From positions 1-44,112 of IMG/VR virus record IMGVR_UViG_3300029558_000015: DNA of 44,112 nucleotides; one strand, written 5' to 3'. Source of the stretch: a virus. Positions 11,036 to 42,136 of the stretch are shown here, piece by piece. Position 1 is the stretch's first letter. Every line of letters starts with the position of its first letter. The notes below the pieces were generated by a model. It was not told where the DNA came from and made no database searches. It worked only from the letters and a program-made list of their open reading frames with translations. The position numbers and the translations under genes were made by a program.

Positions 11036-12166
11036 ATGAAATGTATCAGATGCCATGTAAGCATTCCAGACAAGGCCTTATTTTGCCCGTGGTGCGGAAA
11101 GCAGCAGGGTGCAACGTCCGCTCCCGTGCATAGAAAAAAGCGCCGCCGCCCAAAGGGCAGCGGTAGCGTGTACAAGCTGAAAGGGGTCCGGGCAAGGCCC
11201 TATGTAGCCGTGACCGGGAAAAAGGAAGTGCTGGGCACATACGGAACGCCCGGGGAAGCCGTCCAGGCGCTTGACGCATACAACGCCCAGAACACCCCGG
11301 CAGAGCGTCTGAAGTGTACTTTTGCGGATGCCTACGAAAAATGGCGGGCACAGCCGAAGTTTTCAAGTCTCAGCCGGGACATGATAAATGGATACGAGCT
11401 GGCTTTCAAAAAAGCCGCTCCGCTGTACAGCCGACAAATGCGAGACCTGAAAGCGGAGGACTATCAGCAGATCATAGACCAAATGGTCGCAGACGGTCTC
11501 TCCCGCAGCTCGTGTGAGAAGCAGCGCACCCTTTTCAGCCAGCTATGTGAGTGGGCAATGGCCCAGGACATCATTAACAAGAACTATGCCCAGCTCCTTC
11601 ACCTTCCCGCCGCAGCCGGAAAGGCAGAGCGTACCCTTACGGCGGACGAGATTGCCCGGATCAGCGCCTACCAGACCGACAAGCGCTTTGGTCAGACAGC
11701 GCAGATTGCTATGGTGCTTCTCTATACAGGAATGCGCATCGATGAGCTGCTCTCCATGCGCTGCGAGAACGTGTACCTGAAAGAGCACTATATGCAGGGC
11801 GGTGAAAAAACGGAAGCGGGCAAAAACCGCATCATCCCCATTCTCGACCCCATTTACAAGATCATCGCCTTCTGGATGATGGACAGCGGGTGCGAGTGGC
11901 TGATACCTTCCAAGGCTGGAACGAAACTGGACAAGAGAAACGTGGCCACGAAGTTTCGGGCCTTGATGCAGGAGTGCCAGATCGATGGCGTGCACCCGCA
12001 CACCCTTCGCCACACGGCCAGCAGCAAGATGGTGGAGTGCGGTCTTGAAAAGACCGCCGTGCAGGCTATCCTCGGCCACAAAAATTTTTCCACCACAGCA
12101 AACAAGTACGTTTCCCACAACGACCCGACATACTTGTTACAGGAGATGCAAAAAATGAAATACTGA
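11036..12166 (+). CDS. int: Tyrosine site-specific integrase with N-terminal zinc ribbon
   Basis: C-terminal catalytic region HTLRHTASSKMVE...ILGHKNFSTTANKYVSH. N-terminus CIRCHVSIPDKALFCPWCG. AAAGGAG RBS. Confidence 0.93.
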   Translation: MKCIRCHVSIPDKALFCPWCGKQQGATSAPVHRKKRRRPKGSGSVYKLKGVRARPYVAVTGKKEVLGTYGTPGEAVQALDAYNAQNTPAERLKCTFADAYEKWRAQPKFSSLSRDMINGYELAFKKAAPLYSRQMRDLKAEDYQQIIDQMVADGLSRSSCEKQRTLFSQLCEWAMAQDIINKNYAQLLHLPAAAGKAERTLTADEIARISAYQTDKRFGQTAQIAMVLLYTGMRIDELLSMRCENVYLKEHYMQGGEKTEAGKNRIIPILDPIYKIIAFWMMDSGCEWLIPSKAGTKLDKRNVATKFRALMQECQIDGVHPHTLRHTASSKMVECGLEKTAVQAILGHKNFSTTANKYVSHNDPTYLLQEMQKMKY

Positions 12167-39158: not shown

Positions 39159-39599
39159 CTACTTCAAACCGTAGTCGCTTACAATTTTGCTTATTTCTAC
39201 CCTTGATCTCTTCTCAAGCAACGCATCTCTTACATCCATGGTAACGTCATTCACCCGATTCTTCGCTTGAATAATTGCATGAGCGCTTTTAGCTTCGCTC
39301 AGAACGATTCTTGCGGCTTCGACGTTTGCTTTTAGCGTCTGAATTTTTCTCTCGTTAAATTCTCTTCTTCGTGCATCTCTTGGAGAATCCGATTTTTTCT
39401 GAATCTCCAATTTCTGAAGTCGCTCTGCATACTCTTTTTGATATCCCTCGAATGTATTCTTGATCCATCCGTCTCTGATATCTTGCGCATAAGCAATTTG
39501 TTTTGGCGTTCCCTGCAGTTCGGGGAGGTCTCCTCCAAAAGACTTCATTGTGGAATCCCCGCCCGCTCTCGCAGAGCTGCCTGAACCTCGTTTACTCAC
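39159..39599 (-). CDS. Hypothetical protein with N-terminal MSKRGSGSSARA leader (146 aa, GTG start)
   Basis: GTG at 39599 follows GAAAGAAGG and overlaps the DUF4417 stop. The leader peptide is shared with gene 40234-40626. Confidence 0.6.
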   Translation of the reverse strand: MSKRGSGSSARAGGDSTMKSFGGDLPELQGTPKQIAYAQDIRDGWIKNTFEGYQKEYAERLQKLEIQKKSDSPRDARRREFNERKIQTLKANVEAARIVLSEAKSAHAIIQAKNRVNDVTMDVRDALLEKRSRVEISKIVSDYGLK

Positions 39600-40215
39600 G
39601 GTAATGCCTTCTTTCGTATTGAAACGGTTTAATTTTGGTCACGTTCCAGTCAAATTCATCAGGGCATTTGCCATACCACAAGATGCCGCTCGGTTGAAGC
39701 GCTTCCAGCGCCTTACGGCAATGTTTGGCAAAGCATTCCGCTTCGTATGGGTCAGACTGTGTGCCGTGGCTGGAAATGCTCACGATAGCGTTTCTCGGTT
39801 CCCCATCAAAGCACCAGTCATAGCTTTGCTCACCGCACCAGCAGAGCGTCGGGATCACATGGATGCCGTGGGCTTGCCAGTAGGCAGCCAGCCAGTGCTT
39901 TTTGTAGTGCATGAAAAGCTGCACCGCAAGCGGCATATCGCTGTACAGAGAAAAATCCGGAGAACATACCGCGCCGAACTGCTGCAAAAGGGAAATGTAT
40001 TTGTCGGGGTTGTTCCAGAACCGTTCAAACTGGTAATCGTCCTTGTAAAAATGCACGCCCTTTGTGGCCTTGTCTTTGGCAGTCAGGGCGTAGTTTACCG
40101 GAATCCATTCCAGCTTGTCGATTCGGATGTCCGTTTCTGGCTTGATTTCAGGGATGCCATACTTGCCCACGCCCGGAAAAATCATCTTTTCGGTGTTTTC
40201 CATCGGCAGAATCAT
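39592..40215 (-). CDS. DUF4417 domain protein
   Basis: HFYKDDYQFERFWNNPDKY...PDFSLYSDMP...WLAAYWQAHGIHVIPTLCW matches my recollection of the DUF4417 consensus. GGAGGGG RBS. Confidence 0.65.
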   Translation of the reverse strand: MILPMENTEKMIFPGVGKYGIPEIKPETDIRIDKLEWIPVNYALTAKDKATKGVHFYKDDYQFERFWNNPDKYISLLQQFGAVCSPDFSLYSDMPLAVQLFMHYKKHWLAAYWQAHGIHVIPTLCWCGEQSYDWCFDGEPRNAIVSISSHGTQSDPYEAECFAKHCRKALEALQPSGILWYGKCPDEFDWNVTKIKPFQYERRHYRE

Positions 40216-40233: not shown

Positions 40234-40626
40234 TTACTTTTTCTTGAGTTTCCGCCCCGTTTTCCAGTTATACCCGCGTTTTTCAAGAGAGCGGCGTGCT
40301 GCCTGTGTAGATGGGTTGTCAGGATGCCCCTTTGCTTTGCCAAGCAAAACCTCAACACGACTTTTTTCTTTAATTGCGCCAGACGCAACGCCCGCTTTGT
40401 ATTCTGCAATGGCAGCTTCTCTTTTTGCAGAATATTTTGCGGCGGCTTCATGGGCTTCTTTTTGCATCTTCTCAGTTTGTCTGCGTGTCAAACCGTGAGG
40501 AATACGCATTTTATCATCCATGTAATCACTGATGGGCGAACTCAGTCCACGTTTTGCAAGAAATTCATCAAGCGTAGTCTTTCCGCTACTTGCCCTTGTG
40601 GAACTACCAGACCCGCGTTTACTCAT
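40234..40626 (-). CDS. Basic hypothetical protein with N-terminal MSKRGSGSSTRA leader (130 aa)
   Basis: ATG at 40626 follows GAAAGGAGAG. First gene after the RNA island. Confidence 0.6.
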   Translation of the reverse strand: MSKRGSGSSTRASSGKTTLDEFLAKRGLSSPISDYMDDKMRIPHGLTRRQTEKMQKEAHEAAAKYSAKREAAIAEYKAGVASGAIKEKSRVEVLLGKAKGHPDNPSTQAARRSLEKRGYNWKTGRKLKKK

Positions 40627-40689
40627 TCTTGGCACTCTCCTTTCTGCGTTTATGGCTTTTCTTCCAGAAAATAAAAAGCCCGAAATTGC

Positions 40690-40719
40690 TCAAGCTAAAT
40701 CTCAAGCTATTTCAAGCTA
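40690..40719 (-). repeat. Three tandem direct repeats TAGCTTGA (minus sense), spaced 12 and 10 nt
   Basis: Plus-strand TCAAGCTA at 40690, 40702 and 40712. Lies between the tRNA-like 3' end and the packaging operon. Confidence 0.8.
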
Positions 40720-40730
40720 AAAATCACGGT

Positions 40731-40885
40731 AGCCGTCAGCCGGATTTGAACCGGCACCCACAGGCCCCCGCCGGGGCATGGTTCAGTGCCTCGGATGTAT
40801 CGAGTTGTTGTAAGCTAGCCATGTGGTGTCACCAACGTTGTCCCGCCTTAAATGGGCGGCGCTCTGCCAGTTGAGCTATGACGGC
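40731..40885 (-). tRNA. 155-nt tRNA-like gene: canonical acceptor, D and T arms, anticodon-like loop CAUUUAA (A at position 33), 87-nt insertion at the variable-loop position
   Basis: GCCGTCA TA GCTC AACTGGCA GAGC G CCGCC CATTTAA GGCGG [87 nt] GCCGG TTCAAAT CCGGC TGACGGC T. The acceptor stem pairs 7 of 7. No encoded CCA. Confidence 0.6.
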
Positions 40886-41007
40886 ATATAAGCAGCAACG
40901 CCATTATCTGCTTTTACCGGACAGTAAGACGTTGCCGCTGCATCTGGAACTTTAGCGGCCAGATGCCCCGCTACTCTCTGCATGCTGTCCCCCGGTCATG
41001 CAAAGTC

Positions 41008-41083
41008 TGGCACTCCAGGCAGGGCTCGAACCTGCAGCCTACGGTTTTGGAGACCGCTGCTCTACCACTTGAGCTGCCGGAGT
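41008..41083 (-). tRNA. tRNA-Trp (anticodon CCA), 76 nt with encoded CCA
   Basis: Hand-folded cloverleaf: ACTCCGG CA GCTC AAGTGGTA GAGC A GCGGT CTCCAAA ACCGT AGGCT GCAGG TTCGAGC CCTGC CTGGAGT G CCA. A1-U72 and G73 as in bacterial tRNA-Trp. Confidence 0.88.
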
Positions 41084-41089
41084 ATAAAA

Positions 41090-41158
41090 AGCCGCCCTTG
41101 GAATCGAACCAGCCGTGCCTACACACACGCACCGCGCTCCACATTGCGCTCAGGCGGC
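41090..41158 (-). ncRNA. Degenerate 69-nt tRNA-like element (good acceptor and D arms and T loop; aberrant anticodon arm with a GU-repeat loop; weak T stem)
   Basis: GCCGCCT GA GCGC AATGTGGA GCGC ... GTGC GTGTGTGTAG GCAC ... GGTTCGATTCC ... GGGCGGC T. Confidence 0.45.
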
Positions 41159-41166
41159 CATATAGC

Positions 41167-41201
41167 AAATAAAAACAGCCCGCGGTTCGCCGCCGGGGCT
41201 G
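41167..41201 (-). terminator. Rho-independent terminator closing the upstream RNA
   Basis: Minus sense CAGCCCCGGCGGCGAACCGCGGGCTG followed by TTTTTATTT. Confidence 0.7.
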
Positions 41202-41561
41202 CTTGAGTTGACGCACATCCTGCGGGGCATGCTGGCCCGCTCGGATTTCCGGTGCTGCTGTTCACGGGCGGAGGTTTCAGGGCGTGGGCAAGATTTCAGG
41301 AGTCCCACACCCACCCGCACACCGGTGGTGAATCACTCCATGCGTCAGATCTGCCGCGTTACAGACTTTGCGGCGTTCGGTGCGAGATCGTGGACTTGCA
41401 CCACGCATGATGCTCGATGGTGATATCTCGCATAGAAGCAGCCCGCAAAGCGCGGTGTCAAAGCGAAAAGCGTTAAGCGGCATGAACGAAAGGAGAATTC
41501 GTACGGGGCCGCGCTTTGGAAGCTGCTGAGAAGCGGCGCACCGCTTTGCGCGGTTCCGCTT
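41167..41561 (-). ncRNA. Candidate ~395-nt structured non-coding RNA (possible ROOL/GOLLD-like ornate phage RNA; unverified)
   Basis: No RBS-supported ORF. Bounded by a promoter and a terminator. Helices seen: 41381-88/41425-32 (8 bp), T-arm-like CGTGG TGCAAGT CCACG at 41389-41405, 41531-36/41556-61, 41299-303/41335-39, and several CCGC-GCAAA-GCGG type hairpins. Confidence 0.5.
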
Positions 41562-41567
41562 GTAGTC

Positions 41568-41609
41568 ATTTTACCACACTTCGATTCACATGTGTTTCAC
41601 AACGATTCA
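41568..41609 (-). promoter_or_regulatory. Extended -10 promoter (TGgTAAAAT) with poor -35 and two TGAATCG repeats 21 nt apart (activator-dependent late promoter candidate)
   Basis: Minus sense TGGTAAAAT at 41576-41568. TGAATCG at 41588-41582 and 41609-41603. Directly downstream of the late regulator gene. Confidence 0.5.
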
Positions 41610-41635
41610 AATAAAGCGTAGAAATCAAAGCGCTT

Positions 41636-42136
41636 TCAATGGTCGTTTTGTACATCCTCCCAGATTTCTGCCAAAGCATCAAACCCCTCGTGGATGTAGG
41701 TAGAGACCGAATTGTCTCTGGACAAGCCCACGTCCACCGCGATCTTCTTTTGGGGCTTCAGGTCGATATACCAGCCGCAGATGCACTTTGCTTGCTTTTC
41801 AGACCGAGCAGACCCGCTCAGGCAGTAGGCCCGCCGGGCAGCTTCGATGCGCAGTTCACAGAGATCAAGCTCCATCTGCTTGAGGTTCCGCTCTTCTGTA
41901 TCGATTCTCTCCACGGCAAAGCCCACCTTGTCACCGGTTCCACCGCCCATCGGCATCCCGCTCATGCTCTGGGTGCACTTTTCGGCAGTATCCCGGATAC
42001 GCTGGATCTTCTGCTTTTGGGCCTCGACCTGCTCCGCCAGGTCTCTGCACTGCTGGAACCACGCCTTTACCTCGCGATAGTCCACACCGGTGCGGGGTTT
42101 TGGTTGTTCGCTTTCAGGTGTCCATGTGCGGGTCAT
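41636..42136 (-). CDS. Late transcriptional regulator, DUF1492 / sigma-70 region-4-like (166 aa)
   Basis: ATG at 42136 lies 6 nt after GGAGGAAAGCG. Coiled-coil N-terminus and C-terminal HTH KCICGWYIDLKPQKKIAVDVGLSRDNSVSTYIHEGFDAL. Confidence 0.6.
   Translation of the reverse strand: MTRTWTPESEQPKPRTGVDYREVKAWFQQCRDLAEQVEAQKQKIQRIRDTAEKCTQSMSGMPMGGGTGDKVGFAVERIDTEERNLKQMELDLCELRIEAARRAYCLSGSARSEKQAKCICGWYIDLKPQKKIAVDVGLSRDNSVSTYIHEGFDALAEIWEDVQNDH

Follow-up and report, generated by a model that had tools for sequence, protein, structure and literature searches.

A predicted two-domain RNA with an exchangeable tRNA-like cassette at the tRNA island of gut siphophages

The described RNAs closest in design to the one presented here are GOLLD (RF01998) and ROOL (RF03087). 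Our subject is an RNA locus of about 395 nt in the IMG/VR virus record IMGVR_UViG_3300029558_000015, analysed over its stretch of 44,112 nucleotides (positions 1 to 44,112), hereafter the window. GOLLD is encoded by phages and prophages, adjoins tRNA islands and has two domains around a tRNA, with a linker that sometimes holds tRNAs (PMC12286853). ROOL is a prophage-encoded RNA with a complex fold, found near tRNA genes in Bacillota (PMC5737381; PMC12286853), with no embedded tRNA described in either of these papers. Both form homo-oligomeric nanocages. They are a standing puzzle: their structures have been solved, their functions have not. Catalogues of candidate phage RNAs exist (PMC10690425), and we found no published description of this family.

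It is highly probable that the locus encodes a structured non-coding RNA family. Our preferred reading, with a probability of about 0.6, is an independently transcribed structured non-coding RNA, made of a two-domain scaffold and a tRNA-like cassette, that acts on translation.

In terms of context the locus resembles GOLLD: it lies in a prophage, adjoins a tRNA island and, in all members, has a tRNA or a tRNA-like element between the two domains. Rfam was searched with cmscan at the gathering threshold on the whole window, at E <= 10 on positions 40600-41700 and at E <= 5 on eight relatives. Only tRNA matches were returned for the window and these relatives, and no catalogued family fits the RNA; GOLLD, ROOL, OLE, transfer-messenger RNA (tmRNA), T-box, RNase P, introns and Y RNA were ruled out by these scans. 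The covariance models of GOLLD (even at E <= 10 on 40600-41700) and of ROOL match neither the window nor the eight relatives. Moreover, GOLLD exceeds 800 nt, while the scaffold here has about 330 nt and a slot that is never empty and in most cases holds a tRNA mimic that does not decode. The RNA is a new class of the GOLLD and ROOL kind (phage tRNA-island-associated structured RNA) and not a homologue of either. It is distinguished by its small size, its always-occupied exchangeable tRNA-mimic slot and its loops resembling an anti-Shine-Dalgarno sequence.

In OLE, ribosomal protein bS21 binds at the anti-Shine-Dalgarno mimic (PMC12054373). OLE is a large ornate Bacillota RNA that displays a copy of the 16S 3' tail, CCUCCU in its case and AACCUCC, CUCCUUUC or CACCUCCUUUCU in conserved loops here. 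Unlike our RNA it is chromosomal, has about 600 nt and carries no tRNA module, and it gives no Rfam match here. Its mimic is paired with a Shine-Dalgarno (SD)-like strand, whereas the one here is mostly unpaired and a putative ligand site.

tmRNA and YrlA also join an acceptor/T-arm tRNA mimic, lacking a normal anticodon arm, to other structured RNA, as seen here. In tmRNA, however, the mimic is built from the 5' and 3' ends of the RNA and comes with a tag open reading frame (ORF); here it is an internal closed cassette, with no tag ORF. Neither ARAGORN, a tmRNA detector, nor Rfam reported a tmRNA or Y RNA. A T-box-like UGGN:NCCA pairing was also rejected, with no Rfam T-box match and a conserved AUGG(A/G) that does not covary with the discriminator (an A faces an A in most types).

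Predicted boundaries and folded domains

The regulator protein encoded 5' of the RNA retrieved 80 IMG/VR loci, and in 78 of them the DNA resembles the query, a region that covers the RNA together with the tRNA-like element 3' of it. A motif scan gave 174 loci with 140 distinct sequences. Another scan, with a gapped 3' motif on viral contigs, added nine real loci, consisting of 5'-motif variants and a new subtype; the remaining 84 of its 93 new loci were chance matches (model R2) and were discarded. Overall, the RNA was found in more than 180 gut-virome contigs, with two motifs, GCGGGCTGCTTCTAT and GGATGTGCGTCAA, essentially invariant across relatives. Single loci are given below by number (L106 and the like).

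The module has a sharp start. In relatives with a regulator 74-80% identical to that of the window, DNA similarity sets in exactly at 41561 and then stays at 92-94% through the RNA. Since this onset lies at the predicted start despite the diverged regulator, the RNA is a separately conserved module. The initial annotation had proposed a structured RNA running from a promoter to a terminator, and this proposal is supported by the module start, the promoter, the terminator, a strand-specific fold, a shared architecture and the absence of any conserved ORF. Every motif that it listed (the -10 element, the TGAATCG pair, the stems, the T-arm and the GC hairpin) is found on the minus strand, and its "poor" -35 is in fact no usable -35. 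TGn and TAnnnT-like elements lie 6-8 nt 5' of the RNA start in nearly all of 18 divergent 5'-domain representatives. The TGAATCG repeats are kept in the close group only and may be a regulator-binding site. We infer that transcription starts from the extended -10 promoter and mostly stops at the terminator.

By eye, the first transcribed bases (CUACAAG, GUAUAAG or GUACCAU; positions 41556-41565 on the minus strand of the window, and their equivalents) look like a -10 hexamer. They are reminiscent of the sigma-dependent promoter-proximal pause sites used by Q-type antiterminators.

The checks suggested with that proposal included folding against shuffled controls, comparative folding and a covariance model built from homologues, and these three came out in its favour. 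The minus strand folds at -162.9 kcal/mol, against -145.3 +/- 5.2 for shuffles (z = -3.39), with none of 100 shuffles as good; the same test on the plus strand gives z = -1.08. The structure is therefore strand-specific and above chance. The interval had also been called GC-rich, and its GC content is indeed above that of the whole window, but only mildly (0.58 against about 0.55).

The 5' domain opens with P1, a hairpin in a hairpin kept in 29 sequence variants with compensatory swaps such as CAUCGG/CCGAUG and AUCGC/GCGAU. P1 is only 69% paired in the covariance-model alignment because model R1 failed to re-register the P1 of the CAUCGG subtype, and its support comes from individual folds instead. 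In the long arm, the P2-P3 helix has 98.3% of its cells paired in a covariance-model alignment of 97 sequences, with changes on both sides in 7 of its 16 pairs. U-G pairs alternate with C-G in P2. Such alternation of G-U with G-C or A-U is sensible only for an RNA read from the minus strand. When 11 divergent 5' domains were folded independently by minimum energy, the same architecture was obtained. The motif GCGGGCUGCUUCUAU, which contains the single-stranded leader before the cassette, is exact in 77 of the 78 protein-retrieved loci, with variants confined to its first five bases.

The 3' domain is a three-way junction of P5, P6 and P7, with an asymmetric internal loop in the P6 arm. Its covariance model was built from eight near-identical sequences of one subtype and nevertheless finds every other subtype at full length; the window scores 49 bits (E = 2.5e-10). 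The resulting alignment has 96.9% of its cells paired, and both partners have changed in 24 of the 36 pairs. This level was reached by none of 500 shuffles, and slid controls gave 32-45%. All seven pairs of P6a covary. As with the 5' domain, independent minimum-energy folds of 11 divergent 3' domains gave one architecture. RNAalifold on plain MAFFT alignments of the domain recovered P5 only, which is why the covariance model was needed.

Finally, the terminator hairpin closes every RNA type, and all nine of its modelled pairs covary. With the U-run UUUUUAUUU after the hairpin, it has the make-up of an intrinsic (Rho-independent) terminator. It was missed by a simple terminator scan, presumably because the stem has a 2-nt bulge.

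Table 1. Features of the RNA locus and its surroundings in the window (paired motifs are written 5' strand/3' strand).
Feature	Position	Strand	Remarks
Whole predicted transcript, about 395 nt	41167..41561	minus	strand-specific fold; homologues in more than 180 contigs
Extended -10 element TGgTAAAAT (TGGTAAAAT)	41576-41568	minus	no usable -35
TGAATCG direct repeats, two	41609-41603, 41588-41582	minus	centred at about -45 and about -24 of the RNA promoter
P1 hairpin AAGCGG/CCGCUU with nested P1a ACCGC/GCGGU	41531..41561	minus	kept across 29 variants; AAGCGG/CCGCTT of the initial annotation (41561-41556 / 41536-41531)
Long arm: P2 GCAGCUU/GGGCUGC, C-C mismatch, P3 CAAAGCGCGG/CCGCGCUUUG, variable P4 tip	41438..41526	minus	
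Leader UUCUAU, single-stranded	41432..41437	minus	directly 5' of cassette, within near-invariant motif GCGGGCUGCUUCUAU
tRNA-like cassette, 50 nt: 7-bp acceptor-like stem GCGAGAU/AUCUCGC on a T-arm	41382..41431	minus	T-arm at 41405-41389
Discriminator A	41381	minus	CCG next
Optional linker hairpin CGCCGCAAAGUCUGUAACGCGGC	41353..41375	minus	from cassette to 3' domain; missing in short-linker types such as L091 and L075
3' domain, three-way junction P5-P6-P7	41210..41346	minus	covariance model, 11 independent folds
P5 GACGCAU/GUGCGUC		minus	closes the three-way junction
P6 long arm: P6a CCGGUG/CACCGG, P6b GCGGGU/GCCCGU, P6c GGGUGUGGG/CCCACGCCC		minus	
P7 AUCC..GGAU with inner stem		minus	
GGAGT / ACTCC of the initial annotation	41339-41335 / 41303-41299	minus	
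AACCUCC, anti-Shine-Dalgarno-like (16S 3' tail)	41270..41276	minus	asymmetric internal loop of P6
Intrinsic terminator: 13-bp GC-rich hairpin AGCAGCCCCGG..CCGCGGGCTG, 2-nt bulge, then TTTTTATTT	41203-41167	minus	-20.1 kcal/mol
Downstream tRNA island	40731..41159	minus	same strand as RNA
Degenerate tRNA-like element	41159-41090	minus	directly 3' of terminator
tRNA-Trp(CCA)	41083-41008	minus	
Conserved hairpin GGGGCAUCUGGCCGCUAAAGUUCCAGAUGCAGC	40969-40937	minus	in 120-nt spacer after tRNA-Trp; related copies in L069, L075, L208
tRNA-like element with insert of about 85 nt in variable region	40885-40731	minus	Rfam tRNA 45.9 bits; missed by ARAGORN
171-aa regulator	42151-41636	minus	PHROG transcription-regulator families
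Large terminase	38700-37465		late region, with portal and tail genes
Integrase	11036-12166		about 30 kb from the RNA

The tRNA-like cassette and the exposed loops

Between the two domains lies a slot that is hypervariable inside a near-invariant scaffold, and the limits of the slot are the ends of a tRNA-like element. We found at least 67 distinct cassettes of 44-151 nt in this one shared slot, all of which keep acceptor/T-arm features, and no family member with an empty slot. The acceptor stem is a perfect 7 bp in 57 of the 67 cassettes, the T-stem has 4-5 bp in 66 and the T-loop starts with UU in 65, mostly as UUCRANN. On the 3' side, the flank reads N-CC-R in 63 of the 67. The region of the D and anticodon arms varies freely, with hairpins of 9-12-nt loops, long extra arms or a full cloverleaf. 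Some relatives have cassettes of 50-70 nt without a D-arm and with 9-12-nt "anticodon" loops, and the scaffold is still kept. Cassettes, 5' domains and 3' domains recombine as modules.

True tRNAs also occur in the slot. ARAGORN calls a tRNA-Thr(UGU) in L106, a tRNA-Asn together with a second element in L158, and tRNAs with a four-base anticodon in L071, L123 and L143. The Rfam tRNA model matches the slot cassette of L069 and L074, which is the same element as that at 40885-40731 of the window. Most of the D-armless cassettes are not called by ARAGORN.

The four-base calls (L071 932-1008, L123 4380-4456 and L143 5780-5856) are reported as "tRNA-??? anticodon (attg)". Their anticodon loop, CUAUUGAA, has 8 nt, and its stem contains an A-A mismatch. 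These tRNAs may be quadruplet or +1-frameshift decoders, or nuclease-resistant Gln-like tRNAs.

In the case of the window, the cassette is shared with four loci, is the second shortest of the 67 (the shortest has 44 nt) and is the most reduced. It has seven of seven acceptor pairs and five of five T-stem pairs, with a T-loop UGCAAGU (U55 replaced by G) and a flank of A-CCG, not CCA. The initial annotation had described this part as an 8-bp stem with a T-arm-like CGTGG-TGCAAGT-CCACG inside. Both are present, the stem being GCGAGAT/ATCTCGC; what it took for a local helix now appears as a swappable tRNA-like cassette with a two-domain scaffold around it.

As for the loops, AACCUCC is found in the internal or hairpin loop of P6 in 81 of 90 distinct 3' domains, despite differing flanking helices. 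One subtype (L296 6209-6389, L307 8623-8803 and L315 1514-1694) extends it to CACCUCCUUUCU, and in these RNAs the P6 arm is largely an unpaired pyrimidine-rich stretch. This CACCUCCUUUCU holds 12 nt identical to the 16S rRNA 3' end when compared with GAUCACCUCCUUUCU, which we take to be a 3' tail of Firmicutes type and which may not be the host's own. Most 5' domains carry CUCCUUUC or CCUCCUUU in P4, and the P4 tip loop of the window, UUCUCCU, resembles the 16S 3' tail. The ratio of CCUCC to GGAGG is 157:17 in the RNAs and is reversed on the phage coding strand, at 19:81. These motifs are mostly unpaired, with a nearby GGAGG partner in some subtypes only.

Possible role and alternative explanations

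Our picture of how such an RNA would act is tentative, and we give it less than even odds. The RNA consists of three modules: the 5' domain, the slot with its tRNA or tRNA-like element, and the 3' three-way junction with the terminator. Host tRNA-processing enzymes would recognise the acceptor/T-arm minihelix. As this minihelix is the minimal tRNA-processing substrate, the precursor would probably be cut by RNase P between UUCUAU and the following G, with 3'-end enzymes perhaps acting at the N-CC-R side. The cutting would deliver a phage tRNA or tRNA mimic, and two stable folded domains would be left over or stay tethered to the mimic. Their loops (AACCUCC and CUCCUUUC) would most likely bind Shine-Dalgarno sequences or a ribosomal protein such as bS21, and their likeness to an anti-Shine-Dalgarno sequence suggests an action on translation initiation.

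Several points weigh against an RNA of this design acting on translation. Because both covariation alignments follow the model structure by construction, their percentages of paired cells (98.3% and 96.9%) are inflated. No interaction between the 5' and 3' domains and no pseudoknot could be demonstrated; phylogenetic correlation overwhelmed a column-pair scan of the 3' domain for pseudoknots. The two domains are fairly free to recombine. Where transcription starts, how efficiently it terminates and whether the transcript is processed are predictions made from the sequence. The AACCUCC loop is missing in a few subtypes (L091, L128, L169 and L208), and an abundant SD-binding RNA would also hit the SD-rich late genes of the phage itself. 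Furthermore, the cassette of the window is called neither by ARAGORN nor by the Rfam tRNA model (RF00005). It is the most degenerate of the 67, with a T-loop unique among them, and may be a decaying remnant; its flank, N-CC-G rather than CCA, offers no obvious 3'-processing site.

Among the other explanations the main one, a cis-acting leader of the late operon, is unlikely. It would work like lambda PR'-6S-tR', HK022 put or EAR RNAs, with the regulator or the RNA itself driving read-through into the tRNAs and late genes and the cassette as a passenger. The lambda 6S and HK022 put systems do share with this locus a regulator gene, a constitutive-looking promoter, a short terminated transcript and late genes. 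A regulator homologue (20-99% identity) lies just 5' of the RNA, on the same strand, in 165 of the 166 loci with enough upstream sequence, and the tRNAs, terminase and portal follow 3' of it. An extended -10 promoter is of a type that needs no activator. The strong terminator ends about 8-15 nt before the next tRNA-like gene, leaving no room for a promoter, so that the downstream tRNAs would need read-through. Nor did a consensus scan return any sigma-70-like promoter from 41167 to 40640. A simple leader, however, needs neither two elaborate covarying domains nor an always-filled tRNA slot, and 6S and put are not large covarying two-domain RNAs and have no tRNA cassette. The RNA is also better conserved than the regulator, whose modelled fold (a coiled coil and a small helical domain) has no match at E <= 0.001 to Q proteins or another antiterminator in the PDB. 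A riboswitch-like antiterminator, formed by the 3' strand of P2 and the 5' strand of the terminator, has 9 bp in the window and, by eye, shrinks to 4-6 bp or is gone elsewhere; it was rejected as not conserved. Downstream, the second "terminator" is weak (-7.1 kcal/mol) and overlaps AGCTTGA repeats that are possibly a separate late promoter. Somewhat less probable still is that the RNA amounts to a precursor in a phage tRNA operon, its flanks serving the processing and stability of the embedded tRNA and nothing else, and the tRNA of the window having decayed. Some relatives do have a real tRNA in the slot, the locus stands at the head of a tRNA island and the conserved part of the cassette is the minimal processing substrate. 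Against this, a covarying scaffold of about 330 nt with near-invariant motifs far exceeds the known leaders and trailers of bacterial tRNAs, and it is kept where the cassette is clearly non-decoding (50-70 nt, no D-arm). The neighbouring tRNA-Trp and the other tRNA-like genes have no such flanks, and the exposed CCUCC loops, which are conserved, suggest that the domains have a function of their own.

Two further explanations were rejected on the strand-asymmetric fold, the G-U pairs and the lack of a conserved ORF. That the region acts as DNA, as an attP core, a pac or cos site or a replication origin, is very improbable, even if it is a conserved non-coding stretch between early and late modules with a tRNA-like sequence, as in attP sites that target tRNA genes. 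Where G-U wobbles alternate with G-C or A-U, the other strand would have A-C mismatches. The acceptor stem is there with both its strands, in covariation, which sets the region apart from an attP core, and the integrase gene lies about 30 kb away. As for a protein product of the three ORFs of 71-81 aa, which the initial annotation had already called nonsense-like and without ribosome-binding sites, its probability is close to nil. ORFs of 68-74 aa do exist on both strands, but every ORF of at least 68 aa crosses the hypervariable cassette, whose length differs even between close relatives (44 to 151 nt) and not by multiples of 3. The three annotated ORFs are not conserved in relatives; ORFs start elsewhere and have another length and sequence in each subtype, with a single one of 51 aa left in L083. 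The 74-aa ORF of the sense strand begins upstream of the predicted transcription start, and gene callers annotate nothing in the 900 nt or so that follow the regulator gene in public contigs in which the RNA is present.

Returning to a structured RNA that acts on translation, a more far-reaching version of it is speculative and rather improbable. The RNA would be an autonomous device, either a self-assembling particle like GOLLD and ROOL or a modulator that binds bS21 or SD sequences, and its single slot would present interchangeable tRNA mimics, with an N-CC-R end and aberrant anticodon regions, as decoys or resistant substitutes against tRNA-targeting toxins of host defence. If true, it would be a platform for counter-defence that is made of RNA only, exchanges its cassettes and is driven by an arms race. 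In any case the family adds to GOLLD and ROOL a third, unrelated RNA that is built alike and much smaller, its scaffold having about 330 nt where the others have more than 580 nt. With its obligatory link to a tRNA, its at least 67 natural cassettes and its anti-Shine-Dalgarno-like loops, the role of tRNA-associated phage RNAs becomes testable.

Neighbouring genes and the tRNA island

The window, about 44 kb long, is a temperate siphophage. Its minus strand carries, in this order, early genes (RusA), the regulator, the RNA, the tRNA island and the late genes (terminase, portal, tail), so that the RNA lies at the early/late boundary, at the head of the late region. The AlphaFold model of the regulator (mean predicted local distance difference test score, pLDDT, of 84) shows a long antiparallel coiled-coil hairpin and a small C-terminal helical domain. 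Because there is no significant match in the PDB by sequence, and none by fold at E <= 0.001, Q proteins included, the protein represents an uncharacterised family of phage regulators, which always accompanies the RNA.

One regulator homologue carries the label of a Faecalibacterium sp. metagenome-assembled genome, and homologues are found on contigs of up to 185 kb. From this label the host is probably Faecalibacterium; the RNA is common in this human-gut prophage lineage. A blastn search of GenBank phage genomes returned no copy of the scaffold and no cultured representative. The terminator and the downstream tRNA-like element alone match there, in four unannotated faecal phage fragments. 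Scanning the GTDB representative genomes gave 55 matches, 53 of them by chance; the two real ones are on short contigs in Bacteroidales bins and are probably mis-binned.

The island begins with the degenerate element at 41159-41090, which scores only 18.9 bits against the Rfam tRNA-Sec model and escapes ARAGORN. Distant relatives have conserved this element, and so have the four faecal fragments; in L169 it fills the scaffold slot. After the tRNA-Trp, the whole 120-nt spacer folds at -48 kcal/mol, and its conserved hairpin may be another small structured RNA. Next, the element at 40885-40731 has a normal acceptor stem, D arm and T arm, with a loop CAUUUAA that gives the anticodon UUU (Lys) and an A at position 33, where U is near-universal in tRNAs. 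Its relatives have the loop GAGUUAA (GUU, Asn-like) with the same A33, and it fills the slot in phages of the L068/L069 type. The locus thus flags unorthodox phage tRNAs, with A33, 8-nt anticodon loops, giant variable arms and D-armless mimics, many of which standard finders miss.

Further downstream, the small late proteins encoded at 40234-40635 and 39159-39599 (both minus strand) share the N-terminus MSKRGSGSS. A DUF4417 nuclease-like gene (39592-40215) lies between them, and neither protein could be assigned to a family. Lastly, three AGCTTGA direct repeats with a spacing of 10-12 nt lie at 40690-40718 on the minus strand, just 5' of the first late ORF, and overlap the weak hairpin scored as a second terminator. 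They are also present in L009 and L047, are absent in other relatives, and may be an activator-dependent late promoter.

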